A stretch of DNA of 64,000 bases, taken from assembly GCA_002426885.1 (NCBI GenBank), contig DINU01000003.1, forward strand, positions 17,634 through 81,633, in the 5' to 3' direction. Under the pieces are notes generated by a model. That model was not told the DNA's origin and searched no databases. It saw only the letters and a list, made by a program, of their open reading frames with translations. The position numbers and the translations under genes were made by a program. Shown here in pieces: positions 336 to 56,681 of this stretch. This stretch comes from Patescibacteria group bacterium UBA5532 (GTDB taxonomy: Bacteria; Patescibacteriota; Gracilibacteria; BD1-5; UBA2023). Position 1 is the stretch's first letter, and the number at the start of each line of letters is the position of its first letter.

Positions 336-3300
336 TTATTTTCTTCTTGGTTTTTTATCTTCTCGCATATAGACCTCATAGTAGATTCACTTCACGACGA
401 AGAGCGTCAGGAAGGATGCGGCGATAATTCCGAAGATAATAGTGAATCCCATACCCGACCAGAATGGATCTTTCATCGCGATCGGCACCATACCAAGCGC
501 GGTCGTGAGTGTCGTGAGCGTCATCGGCTCCAGTCGAGATGATCCCGCTTCCACGAGCGCCGTAATTCCGCGCATTCATTTCTCGAGATTCTCATTAATC
601 GCAGAGATCAGGATGATTCCGTGGTTCACAGCGATTCCGGTAAAGGCGATAAATCCGATACCAAACGGGATGGAGAACTGATTGCCAGTAAGCAGGAGTC
701 CGATCATAACGAATGGAAGCGACATGATCACTGAGTAGAGGATAATAATAGGCTGCAAGAAACTATTAAACTGGAGTGTCAGGATCGCGAAGATCACGAT
801 AATCGCGAGGAAAAATGATGAGAATGTCGCGATGATCAAATCAGAGTTTTCCTCATTTTCTCATCACTGAGAATAGGAAATGCCTTTCGGGAAATTATAC
901 GTCGAGGCGAATTTATTCAGTTCTGCTTGTTTTGTGAGTATGCTTTCTCCGTCGGCAAGATCAGCATCGACCGTGATCTCGATCTTACCATCGGCACGGA
1001 CGACGCTCGCGATCGCATTTTTTACACGCGTATCGACGAAGTCTCCGACACGATATGATGCCGTCCCGAGAGAAAATGGAATATTTAAGACATCTTCCAT
1101 TCGAGCTCATGAGAGAAATGTATCTGTCTTCAGGATGACGTCCATATCTGATCCATTATTCTCGACTGTTCCGACAGTGACACCGTTCATATTCTGTGTC
1201 ACTGCACTATATATGACTGATGGCGAGACTCCATAGTCTGCGAGAAGATCTTTTTTCAGAGAAAATACGAATTGTCCGGGAGTCTCTGTCGAGCTCGTGC
1301 CGACATTTTTCATGCCATCCATGGATTTCATATGTGCCTGGAAATCCTGAGAAACTTCTATCAGATCAGGAAGATCAGACGTCTCCTCAGCGACGAGCTT
1401 CAGCCCGACTGCTTTCCCCCCGGGAGGACCATTTTCCGCGACAGTACTTGTCACCTTAAATCCTTCTTGTTCGAGGGCAATCAACTTATCATAAATCTCC
1501 GCTTCGAGCTCAAATACAGAACGCTGTCCTTCCGCTTCACGAACTTGAAGTTTCGTGAGCTGAACACTGATACTTGCAGTATTTCCATTGATCGATGTCG
1601 CGACGTACTCGATCTCTGGATACCCAGAGAAGTACGATGTCCACTCTCAGACACGCTCTACCATGGCATCTGTCTCGAGTCAGACAGGTCACTCGATGGT
1701 GAATGTCGTCGATCCATTATCGCTATTCGGGAAGAGATTCATTCCGATCGCTGGAGCGAAAGCAAAAAAACCAAACAAGAAGAATACTACCGGGAGAAAT
1801 ATCGAAATCCGCCGTAATTTCGTATGTTCGAGGAAGTTCCGTAGGACTCACTTATACCACTCAGTTACCCTATGAAGGACACGAATCCGAAGTGGAGCGC
1901 TCGTCTCGAGTGTAAGTGTCTTCCCTTCGCGCTCTAATTCAAGGAGTTCTTTTTCCATTTCATCTGCATATTCCATCACGGAGTCACTCTCGATATATGT
2001 TTTTTTCTCACGAACAAAAAGGAGATAGAGTGCACTATTCACGGTAAGAGCGAGGACGAGTCCGCTCGCAAGGACTCAGAAAATCGTAATCGGAATGTAT
2101 GCGAGGAATTTTCCCATAATGCCCGGAAGCATCATCATCGGGATAAATACGACGATCGTCGTGCTGACTCCTGCGATAATCGGGATCGCATATTCACGCA
2201 GTGCGAGCATGATCGCAGAACGTGGAGAGTATCCGATACGGAGCTTCGCACTCGCAGCCTGGACGATGACGATGATCGTATCGACCGCGATTCAGAATGA
2301 GAGGATAAATGAGAAATTCGTAAGGAAGTTCAGAGAATATCCGAACTGATTCAGGATGATAAACGTGACGAGAAATGCAAGCGGAAGTGTCAGTGTCGCG
2401 AAAAGTGAGTCCTTAAATCCGACGAAGAAAAACATTGCCACGAAGACGAGAATCAGCGTCGTGCCACCCTCGCGAAGAAGATCGCTATAATCATCTCCGA
2501 TCATATCCGCGAGATCATTTCCGTAGATATATCCATAATCTTGGAATTCTTTCTTCTGAAAAAGCTCAGCGATGCGCGCCTTCGCGCCTTCACTCGCCGA
2601 GAAGATGCTCGCCGAGTCAGACTTATTTACTGTCAGTCCGACATAGGTATATGGTATACTTCCTGTCCCGAGCATGAGTGTGTTCGAAGAAGTATCCTTG
2701 TAGGTCCGTTCGATTGTCGCGATATCCCGCAGTCGGACCATATCTCCCGATGGGAGTGTGATCGGAGTATTAAGGAATTCGAAGCTTGTTAAATTCTTTC
2801 ACTCGATACGATAGTCGTATTTTTTTTCTCCGAGGGAAAAGTTGCCGATCGGCTGATCGACATTATACGATCGTACGATACCTGCGATCGAGGAAAGCGT
2901 GAGTCCGAGTGCATCGAGTTTTTCCTTCGGAATAACGATCGATACATCATAGACGGTCGAGTCCCCTGCTCCTCCGACGGTCACATTCGCGCTCGAGAGA
3001 CTTCCTGCACCGAGATCGACGGAGCTGACTCATGCGACTTGCTCGAGCTCTTTCTGGAGTTTCACAGCATGATCGATCATGAGTGCCCGAGAATCAGTAT
3101 TTTTCTTATTATAAATGAAGACTGAGAAAATCTGGTCTGTATTCGTCTCGATATCTGTCACGACGGGCGTGTTCGCATCCGATGGAAGTGAAACACGAGT
3201 GACAGCATTCCGCACATCACTGACGACATCTTTCGAGTTCGCAGTCGTCTTCAGTGTGAGAACGAGCGATGAATATCCGAGCCCCGATGTGCTATCGATC

Positions 3301-3572
3301 GTGTCGATACCTTTTATGTCCTTGATTTCTTTGTAAATCTTATCAGTGACAAGCGAGTCCATATCCTCTGGGTTGGTCCCTGGATATGACGTCGAGATAG
3401 AGATCATCCCGAGTGTGACCGCTGGGCTTGATTCTTTTGGGATCGTGATAGCGGCTGAAAATCCGAGTACGACGAGAAGGATAACTGCGAGGTAGGAAAC
3501 TCGGTATTTTCGTACCCAAAAACCAAAGAATCATTGCTCAAAATAATTTCTCAGTTCTGTAATTCGTAACAT
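336..3572 (-). CDS. RND-family efflux permease (AcrB/AcrD/AcrF type)
   Basis: Track fragments 387-575, 576-839, 864-1100, 1107-1484, 2292-2741, 2799-2984 and 3030-3407 share one frame and are separated only by TGA. The 1485-2291 gap was checked codon by codon and has no TAA/TAG. N-terminus: MLRITELRNYFEQGFFGFWVRKYRVSYLAVILLVVLGF...SYPGTNPEDMDSLVTDKIYKEI. C-terminal TM blocks: LQPIIILYSVIMSLPFVMIGLLLTG and RLEPMTLTTLTTALGMVPIA. Both match ACR_tran architecture. True stop TAA at 336-338. Confidence 0.88.
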
Positions 3573-13971: not shown

Positions 13972-16900
13972 CTAGAGTTCATTTATATCACTGAAAACTG
14001 GTGGAGGACTCGTGATGATCTGTGGATTATACTCGATCACAAAAGGATATTTCGTATAGGAAGATGCGGTCGTATCATTCGTGTTTGTGAACTTCCGGAT
14101 CAGTCCAACGCGGAATCCACTACATGTTCCAGTAATATCACATGTTCCTCAGCCGATGATGCGCGTCGGATTTTCTGCATCGTTATACTTGTATGGTATC
14201 ATTGTCCCTGTCTGTCCGCCGACAGTCCCCGCATCGATCAGCGAGTAGCGACGTACATAGTCGAAGTCGTATTTCTGTGCGGTAGAAGCATCACATGTAG
14301 TCGCAGCGACAAAACGTGGACATGCGAGTGGATTCGCACGGGCTCATCCGATCGTATTCTGACTGATGATATTTCCGTAGAGATAGAGCTGATTACGAAG
14401 AAGGTCGATCGAGATATGTGAGTCATATGTCGTTGCCCAGGTTTTTCCACTTCCACTGAGGACCGCCTTATCGGCATAGAGCGTCCCGACGATATTGGTC
14501 ACACTTGGGTGAATGTAGATATTTCCACCACTTCCATATCCATCACTCATGACGATGATCCCGAGTATTGCGCCAGAATTCGTGTAGCTCATATTTCTAT
14601 CGATATAGAGATCTCCACCATAGAGAACGAGTGTCTTCGGGGAGCTAATATACTGATAGTCTGTATGATTACTGATCGCGAGATTCTGACCGGTGAGATA
14701 GAGTATGCCGTTTACGACATCCTTTCCGACTGGAAGATTTCGGATATTCGAGGCGACTGCTCTGCGAATACTGTTACTTACGGCAGCGAAGGATCATGAA
14801 CCGATGATGGAAGTGTATTCCGTCGAGACGATATTCGAGGCTGTCGATCCAGCGACATTTCCGATGACATTGATCTGATTCTGATATCCCATATCATCCT
14901 CGGTTCAGAAGTAGGAATCTTTTCCGATGATATTCCCATTATAGACGACATTTTTCCCATCGATCTGATACTGGAAGTGTGTACTCAGATATATCTCAGA
15001 GATAGGAGCAACACTCACACTCTTCTGGATCAGACGTGTGTAAAAATGTGGGAGCGCATTCGGAAATGTGTGGACTGGAGCGGTAATCTCTTCACGTGAT
15101 ACGGTAATCTCTGGAGTCGTCGCGGTCGTATCAGTCGTACTTCAGAAGAGAGAGAAATCCTGACTCTTCGACCCAGAGAATGTGACCTGAAACTGGTGAT
15201 TCGTCATATCTGCATCAGGACGCTCGCCATTTTTCGTGATACGAATACTCGAATCCTGGACACCTCCCTCGATAAATCCTCCAAGCGTCAGATCGCCTGA
15301 AAATGCTGATACATAGAGTGGACGGAAATAGAGTGGAATAAGCTGATCTTTTCCTGTGTCGTAGGTAAATGGCACTGGCTGAACTCCAAGAGGTGGATTC
15401 GCATCCTCTACATGTGCATCGATGCGAAGGAGTCGAAGGATCGCGAGCACATCTGACGTCTGACCATCTGCGGTCGTGTACCCTGATGCAGTCGGTGTGT
15501 AGACTTTGAAGTGGAAGACATATCTTCCGTCTATGTCTGGTTTTATATTGGTAAATTCTACCGTGCTCATTTTACCGATATCAAGTGTCTTCCACTCGAG
15601 TTCTCCGGTGTCATTCTTCATGATGCCGATATCGACAGATGATCCACCCGTTCGGTCAAACTGATTCAGGAAGAGACTATTCTCGAGCGTAAGCTTCAGA
15701 TCGATCGATCGTCCGAGGACAGGATCTGGAAGGAATGGATTCTGGTACTGATCTCTGAAGTCATATCCGAGTGTGCGGACGATTCCGTCTGCGATATTAT
15801 TTCCGCGATCTGCAAGTAATCCTCCTGGTTTTGTCAGTCCACCATCATCGTCACCATCAGTTTTTCATCCTGGATTTGTCAGTCCAGCACTTCCATCTCA
15901 TGAGCGATTATTTTCATCGACGATATTCGTCACCTGGTGGTTAATCACGATCTCATATTCTCGATTCTCTCCGAGTGGTGTCGCTTTTACATAGAAGTAT
16001 CCGTACTGGATCGTCTGATTCTCAGCGACATCCTTCGTATAGACCATGAATCGATAGAGTCCCGCTTTTCCGATCTGTGTGTCATCAAGTGTGATCTGAA
16101 CGTTTATAAATGGAAGTCCCGTACGTGGCGTCTCTCATGTGATACTCAGATCGGTCGCTCCCGTGACATAGATGATATTTTCTGCTGTCGAGAGGCCAGT
16201 CTCTCACTCGAGTGGAAGTGTCTCTCCGAGCTCATCAGTGATACGATCGAGCTCGATCATGTATTCCCCGATCCCTGAGGCACCACTCCAGTTTTTCTGG
16301 ATATTATCCCAGTTCGGATTATCGATATTTCCCATCTCCGTGACGGATGGTCCTCATGGCACACGTGTCTGAGATCCATCCCAGCGACTCGTCATATTAT
16401 CCTGAAGATTGATGGTAAATGTCTGCTTCCCGGCATAGTACACTCCTGTCGAGACGAGATTATTCTCATCATCGAGAAGGACTTGTGGATTTTCACTACC
16501 GATTTCTTCATGTCATGGATATGCCTGACCTGATCCGACGATACTCGTGACAGGGAGTATCTTATCGATATATGGACCATGAACATCGTCCGTATCATAC
16601 TGGACCGTATAGGTACATTTTTCGATCGTATACAGGTAGTGTTTATCTGTATTATCAGTCATACGATTTGCGATCTCACGAAGCTTGATGATCGCATCTA
16701 CGAAACTCTGTCCCTGTAGAGAAAAAATCTTCTGCTTGATAGAGGCAAGTTCTGCGAGATCATCCGCATTGGTGTATTTTTTTTCTGCGATTCTCTGATC
16801 GATCAGCGAAGATTTGATCGTCATGACACAATCTCGCTTGATCGACTTCGGATCATCTACACGTACAGTCGTGTCGCATGCGACATCTGACGCGCTCGAA

Positions 16901-17742
16901 TTATGAACTACATCATAGAATGGCGCTTCATCAGGATGAAACGATGCCTGAAGATGATTCAGAGGTCATGAGAGCATTGGATCGTTATTTTCACATCCAG
17001 AATCCCCATCATAACAGTATCCTGTCGCTTCGATATCACGATTGGTCCAGATTCCATTATAGACTTCTCCATTATCCAGGTACTTCAGTGTGTCATCTTT
17101 GGCAGTTGTCTTAATCGTATCGAGAAGTCCTGTCAGATCCTCGATATACCCGGTCGGCGCTAAGACGGATCCGACTCGATTTCATGAGGCATCACCATAT
17201 CCAGCACGAACACAGATCGGCTCGACTGGATCCCATTTATACTGCTTCGTATCCGAAAGTGTCACGATAAGTCCCATATTTGGAGTACTGGGATCTGCTG
17301 GATTACATTGTGCATTTTTATCGAATCCTGGACCCCACCCAGGAGCGAAGAGCTTCCCATCGAGGACGACATTATATCCCGCTTGCATAGGGACACATCC
17401 ACTCCGAGAGTAGATCGTGTATGAGCCGGTGACATTGCCCTCATCATCATAGATAGAGTATGACTGAGATCTATCGACACATCATTTATAACAGATATTT
17501 CCATACTTCGGCATGGCTACTGGTGATCGACCTGAGTAGTTCGGGTTGCTCGGACAGGCTTCTGGAGCTCCAGAGTCCTTGAAGACGGTAATATTCTGAT
17601 TAATCGTGAGGATATTGACTCCTGTCGGCTTCTCATAGTCTTTCGTACCGATATAGTCCGTGACAAAATCTCACCATGCGAAGGTGATCGCTGGGACAGA
17701 AATCAGCGAGAGTGAGAGCAGTGAAAAGAAAATCTTTTTCAT
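13972..17742 (-). CDS. Giant secreted surface protein (1256 aa), unknown function
   Basis: Signal peptide: MKKIFFSLLSLSLISVPAITFAWG. Every 60-nt line from 13972 to 17742 was checked in frame and holds only TGA interruptions. Track pieces 14344-14592, 15142-15621, 16513-16824 and 17182-17388 are all in this frame. It is beta-rich, for example NVVYNGNIIGKDSYFGTEDDMGYQNQINVIGNVAG. It has a duplicated D/G-rich motif GDGSAGLTNPGGKTDGDDDGGLTKPGG (about 15790-15900). TAG at 13972-13974. Confidence 0.8.
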
Positions 17743-40388: not shown

Positions 40389-43300
40389 TTATTTTACCAC
40401 GATGGAGAGCATTTTATTCGGGATAAATATCTCCTTCACGATCTCTTTTCCCTCGAGCCATTTCGCGATATTCGGATCAGCAGAGACGACTGCGGAGACT
40501 TCCTCCTGTGAGACGCCCGTAAGGAAGGAAAAAGTTCATCGTAATTTTCCACCGATTTGGACCGCGATCGTCACTTCGTCATCGATAAGCATGAAGTCGT
40601 CATATTTCGGCCAGGAAGCGAAGAAGAGAGACTCATATTTATAGCCGAAGATTTCCGCGAAAAGCTGAGTCTGCATGAGAAATTCTTTCTGATAGTCTGC
40701 TTCTGTCGTCTCCGATGCACTTCTTCCGGTGATCTTCGAGATATAGAGACTCCGCATCGGGACGCTCTCATCGAGCTCTCCGAGGATCTGATCCGTCAGG
40801 ACATAGTCACGCGTGTACTCCCCTGTCTTCACACTTCCATCTGGGAAGAGGACCGCAAAAGCATCTTTATAGAAGAAGTCGACTTTCCCTCCCGCATCGC
40901 GCGCGATCGTCCGGTAAAAATCCTGCATCAGACGTGCTAGCTCTGACGCACTCACTTCATGTTCGGTTTTTCCGAGCTTCTCGAGTACGACTCTCCGCAC
41001 TTTTGTCGGCTCGAAATCCTGATCCTTAAAATACACAGCCGTGTCAGCGACCACAAGTGGCGCATCTCGCTCGATACCCCTGTATGCCTCGAGCTTCTGG
41101 AGTGCACACTCCATCGGAGTCGCCCCTGTCTCTTCCGTATCGATCAGATGGGGGAATGATTCGATCACGACGGATGGATCCAGTGGGGAAAATGCCTTCT
41201 GAGCGCGGGAGATTTTCCCTGCATTCCCTGTCGCAAAGTAAATCTTCGGAAAATGTGTCGATTTTTTACCCTGCTCTTTCTGGAAATACTCAAAACATTC
41301 TTCTGCTATATGTGGCGCGAACGGATGAAGCAGTCCAAGGAAAGACTCTTTCCACTGATCTCGAAGCTCCTCATCTTTCGGAAGTCAGGTGTTCATGACG
41401 ATGATAAGCTGAGCAATCGCTGTGTTAAATTTATAATTATCGATCCCTTCCCCGATCTGCTGGATCGCCTTATGAAGCGTCTTCATCGCGAGCATGTCAT
41501 CCTCGGCGTATTTTTCTTTTCCTTCGATAAAAAGCGTATAGACTCTATCGAGGAATCTCCGCATTCCGATCATCGCGGTCGTATCCCATGGCGCCGAGTC
41601 CTTGAAGTCCGCGAGATACATCTCATACATACGAAGGCTATCTGCTCCGTATTCTCGGATAATATCATCTGGATTGACGACATTTTTCAGAGATTTTGAC
41701 ATCTTGGCGACGACTCGCTTCACGAGCTCTCCTGTCTGTATCTCATAGAATTTTCCATCTTTTTCCTCGACGAGATCGACTGCCACGAGTCCGCCATTTT
41801 CTCGCTCATAGGCATATGCGAGGATCATCCCCTGATTTCGGAGTCGGTAAAATGGCTCTGTGGTCGAGACGACACCGATATCGAAGAGAAATTTATGCCA
41901 GAATCGTGCATAGAGCAAGTGGAGTACTGCATGCTCTGCTCCTCCGACATAGGAGTCGATACTTTTCCAGTACTGCTCGATCTCGGGAGCGACAAGTGCT
42001 CTGGTATCGTGTGGATCCATGTATCGGAGATAATACCAGCAACTTCCCGCCCACTGAGGCATTGTATTGGTTTCGCGTTTTCCAGAGAGATTCTTCGCGA
42101 GCTGTACATGGACGAATTCTGGGATATTTGTCAGTGGAGAGTTTCCGTCTCCAGCAGGTTCGAAGCGCTCTGTCTCAGGCAGACGAAGTGGAAGATCGTA
42201 ATCGCAGACGATTTTCCCGTAGATTCCATCGTAGATCTTACTCACGACTTTCCCTCCGATTACGAGTTCACGTATATTCCCTGAGCAGTTACATGTAGCT
42301 CCAGCGGTTCGCTCCCCATCATACGGTGGTCGCTTCAGGACGTATGCCATCTCGGGATCGATCGCCTGAGTAATATCATGAATATGAGGAATTTTCTTCA
42401 GATCTTCTTTTGCGAGGTGAATCAGTGGAATCGGCTCACCCCAGTAACGCTGTCGAGAGAAGAGCCAGTCACGGAGTTTATAGTTTACTTTTTTCTGACC
42501 GAATCCCTGTGTCTCTGCAAAATCTGTCAGCACTTCGCGAGCCTTCTCGGAAGTCAGTCCTGTGAAATCTCAGGAATCTACAAGGATTCCGTCGTCAGTG
42601 AGAGCCTCTTCTCAGTGATAAAATAACTTCCAATATCGTGAATGTCCGTGCCATGTAATCTCTTGTTCCACTATATCTTTCTCGACCCATTTCAATGTGT
42701 GTTTTCCTGTATCGACTTCAGATTCCCTCCGGTTCTCTGATCGAAGTATCACATGAAATACTCTTCATGTGGTACTTAAATTTCTACCACTTCTGTATCA
42801 TAGAAATTGCGAACGAGAAAGGGGAACAGGAGAAATGACTTCAAAATCAGAGTATCCTGTCTCCTCCAAGAGTTCACGAGTAATAGTATCGAGTTCGGAT
42901 TCTCAGCCTTCCATTCATCATCACACAAAGTGAACATGTCTGCCATTTTCTTGTTCTTCGATCTCAAGAAGAATTTCTCATTTTTCATTTTCCACGATGA
43001 TATCCACGATTTTTCGCTCTACTATATCAAGTCATTCTCGTACTCTACTTTCTCATGTGTATGCATGCTGATATGCGATACTCTGTTGTATCGGTAAATT
43101 ATACTTCTTCGCGAAAGCAAAATCGCGTTCATCATGTGCTGGGACCGCCATCACCGCCCCCGTTCCATAACTTCCGAGGACATAGTCCGCGATCCAGAGC
43201 GGAACTGACTCATTATTATATGGATTTACGAGATACGATCCAGTGAAGACACCGGTTTTTTCTTTACCATCGGCGGTACGATCCTGATCCGATATCTGAG

Positions 43301-44747
43301 CGGACTTCTGGATATACGCCTCGCACTCCTGCCCCTGCTCCTCGGTGATGAAGTCCTGTACATTCGGATGATCAGGCGCGATCACAGCATAGGTCATCCC
43401 GAACACAGTATCGATACGAGTCGTATAGACGCGGATGGAATGCTGGGGGTTTTTCTGGATTTTCATGAAAATCGCTCGCTCGCGGATCGTCGCATCTGTC
43501 AGATCTTCCCCGTACGACTTCCATACTTTTCTGAGCTTCTCGAGCTGAAAATCGAGGGGTGTATCGAGAAATGTACATCAGAATCGCTCATAGTACGGTG
43601 CGAGCTCCTTCGTGCAGTCGAGATAAAACTCTACTCCGTCGCTCATCTCCATCGCATAGGAAAGGAGCTCGTGTCCGAGTTTTTTTCCGCGATATGCAGG
43701 ATCGACATAGAGTGCCCCGAGTTCATGATACATACCATACTGTGCCACTCGCACAAATCCGACGATCATATCATTTTTCTTTGTGACGAAGAATTGCTCA
43801 GGCGCGAAATCGACAGTATGCAAATCCGTCGCTTTTCGAATCTCGAGAATCCGCTCGAAATCTTCTGAAGTTGCATGAGAAAAAGAAATATCTGAAAAAT
43901 CTCATTTCATCTCTTCTTCATTAACTTTCGGAATGGCTCCGAATTTACTATCTGCAAATGAGGGCTTTGCCGGACGATTGAGTTCACCTAGATTTTTCTG
44001 GAGAGGTAGCTCTCATTTTTTTGTTGTCTTTTTCATCTCGAACTCACATCCCTCACTTTTCCCGATCCAGTTGCGCTGCATATCTTTTATCCCCTCGGGC
44101 CAGTCGAGATCATCGACATCCTTGAGAAGCCGATCAGCATACTTCGTAATCGCGAGGACCCACTGACGGATTTTTCTTTTTTCGACTTTTGTCCCACAGC
44201 GCTCGCAGGTGAAATCAGAGAGAACCTCTTCATTCGCGAGTCCCGTCTTACAGCTCGGACAATAGTTAATCGGGAGATCCTGCTCATATGCGAGCCCTTG
44301 CTCGAAGAGCTTCAGAAAAATCCACTGTGTCCAGCGATAATACTCTGGATCCGTCGTGTCAATCTCGCGTGTCCAGTCATAGCTAAATCCGAGTTTTTTC
44401 AGCTGTCCAGAAAATGTGTGAATATTTTCCTTCGTGACGATCGCCGGGTGGATCCCTGTCTTGATCGCATAATTCTCAGCCGGAAGTCAGAAGGCATCCC
44501 ACCCCATCGCATGCAGAACGCGAAATCCCTGCGCATGCTTGTATCGCGCCATGATGTCATTCGCTGTGAATCCCTTCGGATGCCCGACATGGAGCCCTGC
44601 TCCACTCGGATATGGAAACATGTCAAGCGCGCAAAACTTCGGAACCCGAAAATCTTCTGCACTTTCTGGATTCGCGACGTTATACGTCCCTCTATTTTCC
44701 CAGATTTTTTGCCATTTCTCCTCGATGGCTCGATGATCGTATCCCAT
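40389..44747 (-). CDS. leuS: Leucyl-tRNA synthetase, 1452 aa, with three in-frame inserted domains
   Basis: All canonical LeuRS blocks are present and colinear. These are HIGH ([15 protein letters not shown]), GWDAF[G]LPAE, a Zn knuckle ([23 protein letters not shown]), [11 protein letters not shown]1 ([22 protein letters not shown] and [25 protein letters not shown]), [27 protein letters not shown] ([10 protein letters not shown]), [12 protein letters not shown] and the C-terminal WPKYD...VQIGGKLRG. 4359 nt with 17 TGA and no TAA/TAG; all gaps between track ORFs were translated by hand. TAA at 40389-40391. Confidence 0.9.
40632..41262 (-). other. Ham1/RdgB (ITPase)-like domain inserted between the LeuRS anticodon-binding and C-terminal domains
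   Basis: [19 protein letters not shown]...[22 protein letters not shown]...[11 protein letters not shown]. This resembles the A-T-G-N-x-x-K, E-E-T-G-x-T-x-x-E-N-A and A-D-D-S-G-L blocks of RdgB/Ham1. Flanked by [14 protein letters not shown] and [11 protein letters not shown]. Confidence 0.55.
42612..43050 (-). other. Nudix hydrolase domain inserted in the C-terminal part of the LeuRS CP1 domain
   Basis: Complete Nudix box, G-x5-E-x7-R-E-U-x-E-E-x-G-U: V[G][G][G]MEG[G][17 protein letters not shown]. Four of its Gly are TGA (42903-42923). Flanked by ...[10 protein letters not shown] and ...[24 protein letters not shown]. Confidence 0.8.
43467..44030 (-). other. GNAT acetyltransferase domain inserted in LeuRS at the entry to the CP1 editing domain
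   Basis: Lies between ...[10 protein letters not shown] and [18 protein letters not shown]... Sequence: [60 protein letters not shown] (GNAT motif A, R-G-x-x-L-G). Same frame as the flanking LeuRS sequence. Confidence 0.75.
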
Positions 44748-54245: not shown

Positions 54246-56681
54246 CTACTTTCTCTGGATCATCTTATAGAACTCGAGTACGTCACCTTCCATGACAACG
54301 ACGTCCCCCTTGAAGTTAATTCCGCATTCGTCCCCTGCCTCAACTTCGCGAACATCGAGTGGTCCGACCTTCAGATTCACGACTTCTCATGATCCGACTT
54401 TTTCTCCATTTCGGATGACTCGGACTTTTGCCCTATTCTCGACTTTTCCAGATGTGACGCCGAGTCCGATGATCATCATAGATTTATTTTTTCCTGTGAA
54501 AAATATCGCCTTCACCTCCGCGATACCGATATCCGTCGCATCATAGTGAATATCGATCATTCCGGTGATAATCGACTCGACTTTTTCGATGATGTGATAG
54601 ATGACTTTCTTATCGATATGCTCGATCTTCGAGCTCGAGAGGATGCTCTTCGCAGAGGGAACGACACCGACATTATACGAGATCAGGAGCGCCTGCGAAC
54701 TTCCAGCCATCATCACGTCAGACTGATTGACATCTCAGACAGCAGAGTGGATAAAAGTAACCTGCGTCTCGAGTGTCGAGAGTTTTCCGAGTGCCGTCTT
54801 CAGAGCCTCGAGCGACCCGACAGAGTCCGCTTTGAGGACGATCTTGAGCTGTTTCAGGGCTCATGACTTCAGACGAGTCATCAGCATTCCGAGCGATGCT
54901 CACTCGAATGAGTGGATCGATTTTCGTCATTTTGCCAGAGAAAATTCTCGTGTGCGTGCCTGTGCTGCCTCGAGCGAAGACATAACCTGCAGAATATCTC
55001 CTCATTCTACGATACTCGAGAGTCCAGTAATCTGTGCTGGGACTCATGGTCCGACCGCATCGATATTTTTTCATCGGAAATCCTTCAGTGTACGGACACG
55101 ACCAGATGAGTCAGTGATCACGACTGGATCACTCCGTCGAATCGTCCCTGTATTTACGAGAACATTGATGACTGGTCCGAGCTTCTGATCGAGATGTGCT
55201 TCGATAACAGTCGCGACTCATGGTCGATCAGGATTCGCTTTCAGCTCGAGCATATCTGCCGAGAGAAGGATCATATCGAGTAGAGTCTCGATCCCGAGTC
55301 CTGTATGTGCCGAGACTGGTACAAGGATCGTCGATCCACCCCATTCTTCTACTTGGAGTCCTTGCTCTGCGAGCTGTCACTTAATCAGCTCAGGATTCGC
55401 TCCAGGTTTATCCATCTTATTCATCGCGATGATAATCGGGATATTCGCTTCTTTTGCGTGATTGATCGACTCGATCGTCTGAGGCTTCATCCCTTCATCA
55501 GCTGCGATGACGATCACGGCGATATCTGTGAGCTTCGCACCACGAGCACGCATGATGGTAAATGCTTCGTGTCATGGAGTATCGAGAAAAGTAATCATCT
55601 GACCATTTCGTTCGACCTGATACGCACCGATCGATTGTGTGATTCCCCCTGCTTCTCCCTGCGCGACCTGTGTCTTACGGATGTAGTCAAGAATCGATGT
55701 CTTTCCATGATCGACATGTCCCATGATCGAGATCACAGGTGGTCGTGAGACGAGTGTCGCCGTCTCATCTTCTTTCAGAAGGTCTGTAATATCTTGATTC
55801 AGAAGGTCGGTGATGGATGCTGAGTCTGAGACTTCTTTCACGACACTGATCTGAAATGATTCCGCGATCAGGTAGCATGTCTCGAAGTCGATCGGTGTAT
55901 TCAGTGAGACAAGCATTCCACTTTTCATCATTTCTGCCATGATCTGTGAGAGTGGAACTCCGATCTTGTCAGAAAATTCTTTTACCGAGATCATATCTCC
56001 GATCGATACCGTCTGTCCAGTTCGATCGACCAGCACTTGCTTAATATCCTCGATCGATTTCTCTTTTTTCTTTCCATTCACTTGTCCTCGGCGGAAAGAA
56101 AGCTCCTTTTCTTGTCTCTCGGCACGCTTATCCTTCCGGTTTTTGGTGTCGAAATTCTTCCCATGTTTTGCGGATCCATCACGTTTCGGAGTATCGTAAC
56201 CGATATCTCGCTGAAAAATCGGCTTCGAATTATCACGAATCCGACTCGAATCCTCACTATTTTTTTGTTCGGAGCGAGGCTTTTTTCTGTGATCTTGGTC
56301 TTCCTTCGGGACCTGTACGACGGGACGATTCTCGAATTTCTTCGGCTGAATCTTCTCGAAAGAAATCGCCGGTCTCCGCTCTGGTGTCGATCATTTTCCA
56401 TGATCATTCCGAGCAGTATTCTGATCGGCATTTTCCCGGATCATCGACTGCATCAGCCCAGCGCTCGCATGCTCGCGCTTTATGAGTCTCGCTCACTGAT
56501 GTTTTGGTGCTTCCGGCTCTTTCGCGACTTCCGCTTCCTCGCTCGTCGGAGTGTCTACTTTTTTTGGCTTTATCTTCAGCTTAACTGGAGATCATTTCTG
56601 TGTCGCCTGAGATGTGTTCGCGCCCCCCTGTGTCGCCTGAGCGTAGTAATCATCTTGTATATTCTCAGATGATGAAGTCAT
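54246..56681 (-). CDS. infB: Translation initiation factor IF-2 (811 aa)
   Basis: Basic low-complexity N-terminus. G-domain motifs: [20 protein letters not shown] (G1), FLDTP[G]HEAF (G3, Gly = TGA at 55572-55574), IIAMNKMD (G4). C-terminus: ...[11 protein letters not shown]. All gaps 54717-55571 and 56082-56681 were checked in frame. TAG at 54246-54248. Confidence 0.93.

Follow-up and report, generated by a model that had tools for sequence, protein, structure and literature searches.

Aminoacyl-tRNA synthetases are standard examples of slow-evolving, architecturally fixed enzymes. The CP1 editing domain of synthetases is itself an insertion, and the known domains of synthetases are fixed across whole lineages and linked to the handling of tRNA or amino acids. 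Rickettsia palindromic elements are short selfish palindromic repeats that lie in frame in protein-coding genes and hold no enzymatic domain.

Here we describe a leucyl-tRNA synthetase (LeuRS) gene, leuS, within a stretch of 64,000 nucleotides from Patescibacteria group bacterium UBA5532 (contig DINU01000003.1 of assembly GCA_002426885.1), referred to below as the window. In this LeuRS, hinge or surface loops have received three complete foreign enzyme domains, inserted in frame; one of them is a Nudix domain. No description of a LeuRS-embedded Nudix domain was found in the literature searched on Nudix enzymes, synthetases and Gracilibacteria/Absconditabacteria, nor do the genome papers on Vampirococcus and on groundwater Gracilibacteria, or the review of the Nudix clan, mention one. 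We favor, with moderate confidence, a reading in which the Nudix graft is probably a hydrolase, is carried by LeuRS and is exchanged as a cassette.

The leuS gene and its inserts

The leuS gene occupies 40389..44747 on the minus strand and consists of 1452 codons read in genetic code 25, with TAA as the stop. The frame contains 17 TGA codons and no TAA or TAG ahead of the stop. Two of the TGA codons stand at glycines universally conserved in LeuRS, aa 87 (WDAF-G-LPAE) and aa 1404 (GKLR-G); therefore UGA encodes glycine. When the code was tested on stop-to-stop open reading frames of at least 150 aa, these summed to 58,529 aa under code 25 versus 13,592 aa under code 11. The closest matches come from Gracilibacteria, Ca. 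Absconditicoccus and Ca. Vampirococcus, and the window shows the properties of code 25 (UGA = Gly) as found in Gracilibacteria/Absconditabacteria; it derives from an uncultured member of the Gracilibacteria.

Judged from its sequence, leuS encodes a working LeuRS because the class I motifs HIGH (HVGH, aa 53–56) and KMSKS (aa 1015–1019) and the CP1 editing motifs (TTRIDT, aa 442–447; a GTG...HD.RD-type motif, aa 528–542) are intact. Together with the anticodon-binding domain, these make up the full set of features of a bacterial leucyl-tRNA synthetase. The protein is matched by the Pfam models tRNA-synt_1, tRNA-synt_1_2 (188 bits) and Anticodon_1, and its core is 68–71% identical to every top match, which leaves none of them standing out as nearest neighbour. 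The N-terminal part of the CP1 editing domain (43077..43442, minus strand; aa 436–557) aligns to residues 245–362 of the Thermus thermophilus LeuRS. The C-terminal part and return strand (42468..42605, minus strand; aa 715–~760) align to residues 374–438 and terminate at KVNYKLRDW.

Besides the Nudix module, the gene holds an insert at each of two further sites. The site-A insert (43443..44042, minus strand; aa 236–435) contains a GNAT acetyltransferase, matched by Pfam Acetyltransf_7 at aa 317–390 with 45–48 bits against a cutoff of 27. The site-C insert (40620..41288, minus strand; aa 1154–1376) has no TGA codon and lies between the anticodon-binding domain and the C-terminal domain. It comprises a complete ITPase/Ham1 fold: the AF2 model has a pLDDT of 90.4, Foldseek aligns it to Ham1/ITPA with E ~1e-9 over ~205–212 columns, and the motifs ATGNxxK, EETG, QK and ADT are invariant. 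Its structural matches include chains with an ITPase fold from the Kongming KomBC system. The GNAT and ITPase/Ham1 inserts, like the foreign composition and the allelic-cassette nature of the Nudix module described below, go beyond an earlier sequence-only reading of this DNA.

The Nudix module and its relatives

The sequence-only reading had placed a complete Nudix box within LeuRS, in a module at 42612–43050 between a CP1 string and the KVNYKLRDW region. The module is located there, but its true extent is slightly wider, at 43076..42606 on the minus strand (aa 558–714, ~157 aa). The two flanking strings were also correctly identified; the module, however, lies inside the CP1 editing domain, in place of a loop of ~11 residues in the alignment with the T. 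thermophilus LeuRS, and not between CP1 and the catalytic core. The box itself holds up in full. Residues G610 to Y632 (42852..42920, minus strand) read G610-x5-E616-x7-R624-E625-L626-x-E628-E629-x-G631-Y632, an exact match to GX5EX7REUXEEXGU with E625, E628 and E629 as the metal-binding residues. The four TGA-encoded glycines claimed for the box region were verified on the minus strand at 42915..42923 (Gly609–611, three consecutive codons at 42923–42921, 42920–42918 and 42917–42915) and, within the box, at 42903..42905 (Gly615). Box glycines encoded by TGA are common in the lineage, and many database copies display W at these positions because the genes were called with code 4.

The Pfam NUDIX model (PF00293) matches aa 578–693 (42669..43016, minus strand) significantly, with 39.7 bits for the whole protein and 44.5–45 bits for the excised insert (E = 6e-10 to 1.4e-11) against a cutoff of 21.1. 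The same model is above its cutoff in 46 of 46 LeuRS-embedded homologues. E625, E628 and E629 are invariant in all 46, although the copies are only 17–48% identical. These results confirm the module as a true Nudix domain that is complete and lies in frame within LeuRS. As a stand-in for its fold we used the module of P0060, which is 47–48% identical to that of the window and is modeled by AF2 with a pLDDT of 94.4. Foldseek matches this model, an alpha/beta/alpha sandwich, to more than 500 Nudix chains with a probability of 1.0. The matches include 2azw, NudI (6dt3), the Aquifex Ap4A hydrolase (3i7u, rmsd 2.6), RppH and MutT; RppH bound to Ap4A and the Aquifex enzyme are among the best of them.

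The same insert is found in 47 of 121 aligned leuS sequences, the window gene counted. Among relatives, modules occur at four LeuRS sites and are of the Nudix, Ham1-like, GNAT, Ser-hydrolase and PD-(D/E)XK types, with one unknown; they come and go, and the reading frame is kept in all carriers. LeuRS pairs with 94% identical cores differ in the presence of the Nudix module, and close pairs also differ in module type. Core distance and Nudix distance are barely correlated (Mantel r = 0.11). The Nudix family occupies LeuRS sites A, B and D, being located before CP1 in P0250, P0253, P0271, P0343, P0371 and P0376 and at site D in P0035; the Ham1-like module stands at site A in P0009 and P0012 and at site C in the window. 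Outside LeuRS, the Nudix family is found in a class II ProRS (P0316) and an M17 aminopeptidase (P0392). Free-standing relatives of ~160 aa also occur, one of which (P0341) is co-linear with the entire cassette. The module stems from a family that also has free-standing genes, and in our reading it is gained, lost and replaced among the LeuRS of code-25 bacteria. LeuRS is the host of 102 of the best 150 representatives of the Nudix family. This preference, with the ProRS copy, could speak against a mere carrier role and reflect a true tie to aminoacylation chemistry; simple recombinational spread among leuS genes is an alternative.

Neither NCBIfam nor a PDB profile search nor Foldseek assigned a Nudix subfamily to the module. 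Its best sub-threshold NCBIfam match is the RppH equivalog, at 24.6 bits (cutoff 118); free-standing relatives reach at most 39.8 bits with the same model. The MutT 8-oxo-dGTPase model (TIGR00586) gives 22.3 bits against a cutoff of 97.9, and no Ap4A-hydrolase model is among the NCBIfam matches of the module. The PDB profile matches 1f3y and 3i7u are generic only (E 1e-7 to 1e-4). ApnA hydrolases have a conserved Tyr in the X-loop, ~17 residues past the box (the rule of Dunn et al.; PMC5389931). In the window the aromatic residue is Y651 (+19), in the alternate allele described below it is a Tyr at +18; the family column contains Y, F or H.

Because the three metal-binding glutamates are invariant across widely divergent copies, the module is probably an active hydrolase. 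It would fold independently, as a compact single-domain Nudix enzyme. Its substrates would probably be small nucleoside-polyphosphates, hydrolyzed by a Mg2+-dependent pyrophosphohydrolase of the MutT, NudI, Ap4A-hydrolase or RppH type. LeuRS may then be a carrier that gives the module expression and stability, and the module seems uninvolved in leucylation or editing. Translation of the module as part of LeuRS is supported by the lack of TAA and TAG in the frame and by its upkeep in all carriers. A contig from an RNA run also crosses the CP1/Nudix junction with 0 mismatches; it is a single contig of low depth, and the metatranscriptome behind it may include DNA.

A closer bond between the two enzymes had been raised in the sequence-only reading, which connected the module to the Ap4A made by synthetases. 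In a broader form of this idea, the Nudix enzyme, tethered to LeuRS, would destroy Ap4A or other Np4N by-products, or Np4N/ppp RNA caps, close to their source, and its placement on CP1, a mobile domain, would be important. The strong enrichment of the family in LeuRS and its presence in a ProRS are in line with this idea, as are the Ap4A-related structural matches, the sub-threshold RppH matches of both the module and its free-standing relatives, and the aromatic residue in the X-loop, at the marker position of ApnA hydrolases. We do not favor it, and regard it as unlikely. The same family is hosted at three LeuRS sites, in ProRS and in an M17 aminopeptidase, and also exists free-standing; the module is present or absent between LeuRS with nearly the same core; and neither an Ap4A-specific nor any other family-specific model matches at its cutoff. 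In addition, most substrate-facing residues are not shared between the two alleles found in one species, and the co-resident GNAT, ITPase, Ser-hydrolase and PD-(D/E)XK modules have no common link to adenylate chemistry.

Replacement of the module between strains

TGA encodes 10 of the 16 glycines in the Nudix module versus 7 of 88 elsewhere in leuS (Fisher p = 3.9e-6). GC3 is 0.28–0.29 in both alleles versus 0.52 in the host gene, and both alleles are richer in AT and TGA than the latter. By its composition, the TGA-rich segment is foreign. Elsewhere, in further genomes, module and host differ in either direction: the module of P0025 is GC-richer than its host, and that of Ca. Absconditicoccus is slightly so (GC3 0.31 vs 0.24), with the same TGA share. 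On the strength of these two modules, an intrinsic bias of the domain was rejected as the cause of the AT- and TGA-richness.

In four independent assemblies of this species (L001–L004) and in run X7, leuS is 97–100% identical to the window outside the cassette (42603..43076, minus strand), the block that is replaced in these sister strains. The divergent block in L001–L004 measures 472 nt, corresponding to 43074..42603 in the window and to nt 1674 to 2145 of the gene. Across it, the two versions are 50–60% identical in nucleotides and 25% identical in protein. The alternate allele is a different Nudix subtype whose box, GGSIEDGETTLDAVKREIFEETGF, is likewise exact, so that both alleles retain the Nudix box; at most substrate-facing residues the two differ. 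Since near-identical strains hold a very different Nudix version at the same spot, the module behaves as an exchangeable cassette. Two old subtypes coexist at one site in this species. Each allele is 45–49% identical to modules of distant LeuRS genes; these are the nearest modules, and homology searches found no donor for either allele. A homology search with the two-allele alignment returned a single protein, P0244, a free-standing Nudix from an archaeal context.

The breakpoints are sharp, at most one codon away from where the domain begins and ends. Homologous recombination of the ordinary kind, with a donor that has diverged, would not predict such breakpoints. Across six genomes, shared sequence at the cassette ends is confined to codons of the conserved flanks. 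The most probable route of exchange would be recombination in the strongly conserved LeuRS codons on either side. An intein was considered and rejected: the insert begins with Y or P and ends in ...EEA or ...NKA ahead of L, and Pfam gives no Hint/intein match. A transposon, MITE or integron cassette was likewise rejected, as the longest direct or inverted match between the two ends is 5–7 nt in six genomes, on a par with shuffled controls (mean ~6).

The existence of two old, highly different alleles in near-identical strains also fits a history of conflict. The inserted enzymes would then be defence or counter-defence modules kept on an essential protein, for instance to destroy signalling or toxic nucleotides or to modify tRNA-linked substrates, with turnover and polymorphism arising from an arms race against phages, prey or competitors. 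Rapid gain, loss and replacement among close relatives and a composition unlike the host gene agree with such a history. The module types recur in defence systems as well, as illustrated by the KomBC match at site C. We nevertheless think this improbable: no defence genes were seen adjoining leuS, the modules resemble ordinary housekeeping hydrolases with free-standing relatives, and neutral swapping of functionally equivalent cassettes could explain the polymorphism just as well.

The module could instead be a selfish or neutral passenger, similar to a non-splicing intein, that LeuRS loops tolerate and recombination spreads while the host gains nothing. The patchy distribution, the several permissive sites and the foreign composition are consistent with this, as is the finding that other LeuRS genes have short, variable loops at the insertion points. 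However, the catalytic Glu and several further positions are invariant down to 17% identity, which indicates selection for enzyme activity. The cassette also has no Hint/intein, endonuclease or transposase domain, and it lacks terminal repeats, target duplications and intein splice-junction residues. A selfish or neutral passenger is very doubtful. An artefact, which the sequence-only reading had named as a possible undoing of its claim and which the 17 stops under the standard code and the contrast in composition with the flanks might suggest, is almost inconceivable: a stop-broken pseudogene was rejected on the TGA codons at conserved glycines and the absence of TAA and TAG from 1452 codons, a chimeric assembly was rejected on a 70-kb contig of run X1 with 0 differences and on contigs from two other studies (X4 and X6) that cover both junctions, and 46 homologues have the same architecture.

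Implications and comparison with known systems

Our preferred reading, of a Nudix enzyme carried by LeuRS and exchanged as a cassette, can be extended, tentatively, to a broader proposal. In bacteria with UGA = Gly, LeuRS, and occasionally ProRS and M17 aminopeptidase, may be a protein-level platform on which free-standing small enzymes are captured in frame at permissive loops, moved between sites, stacked in tandem, and exchanged across species and strains. If true, genes would be acquired, expressed and exchanged in a way that spares them a promoter; the arrangement could persist by balancing or conflict-driven selection and might use a novel mechanism of in-frame insertion. A LeuRS with three nested enzymes, one of them strain-polymorphic, illustrates that surface loops of an essential enzyme can act as exchangeable slots. 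The insertion-tolerant sites of this LeuRS are natural ones that may be useful in protein engineering, and the natural pair of alleles, set in a single genetic background, offers an experiment already in place on the role of the module. For annotation, such genes are labelled "leucine--tRNA ligase" or split at TGA, and Nudix, ITPase and GNAT activities are thereby hidden from metabolic reconstructions of the genome-reduced Patescibacteria.

Among known enzymes, the module is closest to the small Nudix hydrolases MutT, NudI, Aquifex Ap4A hydrolase, RppH and the uncharacterised Enterococcus faecalis 2AZW. It shares with them the exact box and the Pfam NUDIX domain, its predicted fold gives a TM of 0.65–0.8 to these proteins, and at ~155 aa it has free-standing relatives of equal length. 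It differs in being nested in a domain of another enzyme and in having 12–22% identity to any solved structure. As with the accessory domains of synthetases (CP1, the leucine-specific domain and the domains appended in eukaryotes), a class I synthetase has gained a folded domain in a Rossmann/CP1 loop. Unlike those domains, the leuS inserts are unrelated small-molecule enzymes (Nudix, ITPase and GNAT) that vary between close relatives and strains and use several alternative sites.

Like the Rickettsia palindromic elements, the Nudix insert is foreign in-frame DNA in a surface loop of a housekeeping protein and is translated along with it; unlike them, it is a whole conserved enzyme with no terminal repeats. 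Inteins resemble it in their in-frame position in a conserved essential gene, their patchy occurrence among relatives, their sharp-edged replacement and a composition unlike that of the host. In contrast to inteins, the module has no Hint domain, homing endonuclease or Cys/Ser/Thr...His-Asn junction residues; it keeps its own catalytic site and presumably stays in the mature protein. For evolution, the module would represent a recombination-based form of domain mobility, intein-like yet without splicing.

The leuS gene and its three inserted domains

The leuS gene is a single open reading frame on the minus strand (44747..40389, frame 0; 1452 codons translated with table 25), with 17 in-frame TGA codons, a TAA stop, and no TAA or TAG within the 1452 codons. 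TGA occurs at glycines conserved across all LeuRS, in WDAF-G-LPAE (aa 87) and GKLR-G (aa 1404), and stop-to-stop ORFs with a minimum length of 150 aa add up to 58,529 aa in the window under code 25 versus 13,592 aa under code 11, indicating that UGA encodes glycine in the source organism. No tRNA gene is predicted by ARAGORN anywhere in the 64 kb; the tRNA-Gly(UCA) expected under code 25 is therefore encoded elsewhere. Other large code-25 ORFs include, judging by eye from their translations, IF-2 (54246-56681), a secreted-looking protein of 1256 aa (13972-17742) and a transporter resembling RND/AcrB (336-3572).

Judged by its intact motifs, HVGH (aa 53-56), KMSKS (aa 1015-1019), and TTRIDT together with a 15-residue motif in the editing domain CP1, the LeuRS looks functional. 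Bacterial LeuRS is normally about 860 residues long; the 1452 residues here result from three inserted foreign domains, all exceeding Pfam cutoffs. A GNAT acetyltransferase (aa 236-435, Pfam match aa 317-390; window 43443-44042, minus strand; Acetyltransf_7, 45-48 bits) lies directly ahead of CP1, a Nudix module (aa 558-714; window ~43076..42603) lies within CP1, and a Ham1p_like domain (aa 1154-1376; 40620-41288, minus strand) separates the anticodon-binding from the C-terminal domain. The last is a complete ITPase/Ham1 fold with zero TGA codons. Its own sequence is modeled by AF2 with a pLDDT of 90.4, Foldseek matches it to S. aureus Ham1, human ITPA and a Pyrococcus NTPase (~205-212 columns, E ~1e-9), and the signature ATGNxxK, EETG, QK, ADT is invariant in 17 copies. 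Chains with an ITPase fold from KomBC, the Kongming defence complex, are also among its structural matches.

The sequence-only reading had placed the Nudix module between a CP1 block and the conserved KVNYKLRDW region; alignment puts it inside CP1, not between CP1 and the catalytic core. Its flanks align to residues 245-362 and 374-438 of T. thermophilus LeuRS (1H3N/2BYT), so that the module stands in place of a CP1 loop of about 11 residues, and the final portion of CP1 comes after it: a domain in a domain in a domain. The same loop is variable, 6-44 residues, in module-less relatives. The exact Nudix box reported in that reading is present, with G610-x5-E616-x7-R624-E625-L626-x-E628-E629-x-G631-Y632 fitting the consensus without deviation, as are its four TGA-encoded glycines (42923-42915 and 42905-42903). 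The Pfam NUDIX model, whose cutoff is 21.1 bits, gives 39.7 bits for the full-length protein and 44.5-45 bits when the segment is scored alone.

Conservation, fold and composition of the Nudix module

With the entire code-25 translation as query, a search of 5.8 billion proteins recovered LeuRS from Gracilibacteria and Absconditabacteria, including Ca. Absconditicoccus praedator and Ca. Vampirococcus lugosii; many of them run to 1000-1430 aa and carry precomputed NUDIX, Ham1, GNAT, PF06821 or PF13366 domains. In a MAFFT alignment of the window gene and 120 homologues, 47 of the 121 sequences, the window gene included, have an insert of 151-162 aa at the exact Nudix site, and Pfam assigns all of these to NUDIX. 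The embedded copies are 17-48% identical to the window module, and across them the metal-binding box glutamates E625, E628 and E629 and one Trp are invariant. Invariance at this level of divergence is a signature suggesting selection for catalysis. Many database copies have W where the window module has G, because the genes were called with code 4; TGA-encoded box glycines are thus common in the lineage.

The AF2 model of a homologous, correctly translated module (P0060, 47-48% identical to the window's) has a pLDDT of 94.4. Its Foldseek relatives are compact single-domain Nudix enzymes, namely 2AZW, NudI, YfaO, Aquifex Ap4A hydrolase (rmsd 2.6 Å), RppH and MutT, none of which stands out, and a profile search of PDB sequences returns the same mixture. 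The subfamily classification proposed alongside the Nudix box yielded no assignment, as every NCBIfam model falls far below its cutoff on the module (RppH, the best, 24.6 bits versus 118; MutT 22.3 versus 97.9). Sequence and model together point only to the small nucleoside-polyphosphate hydrolase type, and no finer.

The four TGA glycines are a small visible part of a wider anomaly. The module has a GC content of 0.39, a GC3 of 0.29 and TGA at 10 of 16 Gly codons; the corresponding values are 0.49, 0.53 and 4 of 63 for the LeuRS core and 0.51, 0.57 and 0 of 13 for the Ham1-like insert. Against the remaining gene (7/88), the TGA share of the module differs with Fisher p = 3.9e-6, and the GC3 trough along the gene coincides with the module limits. 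Modules in other genomes are mismatched to their host genes in either direction: lower in GC3 in P0013 (0.22 versus 0.36) and P0063 (0.24 versus 0.36), higher in P0065 of Ca. Absconditicoccus (0.31 versus 0.24) and P0025 (0.45 versus 0.33). Mismatch of both signs rules out a codon bias intrinsic to the Nudix domain, and the composition would fit transfer between genomes differing in GC content.

Alternate alleles and turnover of the cassette

A 70-kb contig from the source sample (public run X1) shows zero differences to the window, and the window-type junctions are spanned by contigs from two other studies (X4 and X6); an assembly artefact is excluded. In an activated-sludge run (X7), a 13.7-kb contig matches both flanks, but the 469 nt between 42605 and 43075 are replaced by 472 unalignable nt. 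We traced this alternate allele through a downstream TGA-free LeuRS fragment, whose 90% cluster contains three variant members, and through them reached four independent assemblies, L001-L004 (Logan ERR8482633, SRR30274995 and DRR438484, and NCBI GCA_054403515.1). Outside gene nt 1674-2145 (window 43074..42603), every 90-nt segment of their leuS genes agrees with the window gene at 97-100% identity; inside this block, identity drops to 50-60%. The breakpoints are the third base of the Ala codons bounding the module. The alternate module, 158 aa long, is a complete Nudix domain with an unbroken box, GGSIEDGETTLDAVKREIFEETGF, and is 25% identical to the window module. Both alleles have a GC3 of 0.28-0.29 and a high TGA share in a host gene of GC3 0.52. 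Their nearest relatives, at 45-49% identity, lie in distantly related LeuRS: the window type is closer to the modules of P0013 and P0060, the alternate type to those of P0009 and P0012.

At the left junction (gene nt 1648-1662, window ~43100-43086), three haplotypes occur: the window-type module has an N..Q flank, and the alternate module has N..Q in L004 and D..K in L001 and L003, suggesting that recombination has also taken place no more than 26 nt from the edge of the cassette. Part of the GNAT insert of L004 (gene nt 901-1080) is 12-18% diverged in surroundings that are 98-100% identical, possibly a second patch of recombination. In several studies, ten runs from wastewater, activated sludge and bioreactors (X7-X16) contain 0.30-0.44 of the sampled words of window 41800-43800. 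X7, the only one of these compared in detail with the window, has the alternate allele, which would account for a word share of this size; both alleles therefore appear geographically widespread in engineered water systems.

Turnover is general, and the cassette is bound neither to a single site nor to a single host. P0056 and P0101 (94% core identity) have a Nudix module in one only; the modules of P0063 and P0107 (94%) are 39% identical and those of P0022 and P0056 (88%) 22% identical; and P0055 and P0114 (89%) differ in their insert sets. Core and Nudix distances show hardly any correlation (Mantel r = 0.11, with 117 of 2000 permutations equally high). An exhaustive Nudix profile search of 1.84 billion cluster representatives (E ≤ 1e-10) found 499 proteins, with LeuRS parts in 102 of the best 150. 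The module lies ahead of CP1 in P0250, P0251, P0253, P0271, P0343, P0371 and P0376, P0035 has a second copy at a fourth site, and several proteins stack additional modules between CP1 and the Nudix module. The Ham1-like module, at the anticodon-binding/C-terminal boundary in the window, precedes CP1 in P0009 and P0012. Further modules at these sites are a PF06821 Ser-hydrolase, PDDEXK_3 and a recurrent family without Pfam match. The LeuRS P0005 has the PD-(D/E)XK nuclease-fold module (PDDEXK_3, 89.8 bits) ahead of CP1, in addition to Nudix and Ham1-like modules. The Pfam-less module, ~150-170 aa with the motif ...KVKKK...ISWxYLxxHFKxKxxKE...YY, recurs in Gracilibacteria LeuRS (P0004, P0011, P0028, P0039, P0104, P0114) at the pre-CP1 or the fourth site (core columns 445-470). 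Beyond LeuRS, the Nudix family of the window module is embedded in a class II ProRS (P0316), between the anticodon-binding and C-terminal domains, and in an M17 (leucyl) aminopeptidase (P0392), alongside two GNAT domains. Free-standing relatives with Met starts are ~160-200 aa long, and one, P0341, is co-linear with the entire cassette. The cassette thus amounts to a complete small Nudix protein.

Exchange, retention and interpretation

At the cassette ends of six genomes, no terminal inverted repeat, direct repeat or target duplication is found above chance; the only nucleotides in common are the conserved-flank codons, ...QSIA and A(L/V)TE/DDG.... Pfam detects no Hint, endonuclease or transposase domain in the cassette. 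The simplest explanation would be exchange by recombination inside the conserved LeuRS flanks, which would also explain the concentration of the family in leuS. We infer this mechanism rather than read it directly, because the breakpoints are sharper than flank recombination predicts. The reading frame is kept in all carriers, and intein-type removal is ruled out by the junction residues and the absence of a Hint domain. One 256-nt contig from a metatranscriptome (X17) crosses the 43074/43075 junction between CP1 coding sequence and the module with 0 mismatches, weak RNA-level support for transcription across it, as depth is low and DNA carry-over possible.

The module is probably a Nudix pyrophosphohydrolase that is catalytically competent, acts autonomously and has LeuRS as its carrier; it would be one of several enzyme cassettes that are exchanged in permissive loops and pass laterally between code-25 bacteria. 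The coupling to synthetase-made Ap4A raised in the sequence-only reading is doubtful: enrichment in LeuRS, a second synthetase host (ProRS), fold matches that include Ap4A hydrolase and RppH, and an aromatic side chain at the X-loop position (PMC5389931) speak for it, but the insertion sites vary, a non-synthetase host exists, presence differs among close relatives, and the co-resident modules are unrelated. A cassette driven by genetic conflict would account for the polymorphism and turnover, and we regard it as less likely still. A purely selfish or neutral passenger is the least plausible, given invariant catalytic residues.

Public databases hold these insert-bearing proteins under the plain label leucine--tRNA ligase. 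The literature, as far as our incomplete coverage extends, contains no description of a LeuRS with nested Nudix, ITPase or GNAT domains, nor of cassette-like exchange of such domains; two genome papers on Gracilibacteria and Absconditabacteria are silent on LeuRS inserts, and a review of the Nudix clan does not use the words "synthetase" or "fused". On a more radical reading, LeuRS may be a protein-level cassette platform. Inserted domains are known from synthetases, and the LeuRS described here likewise carries them; in-frame mobile inserts are known from essential genes, and the Nudix cassette in leuS resembles these.
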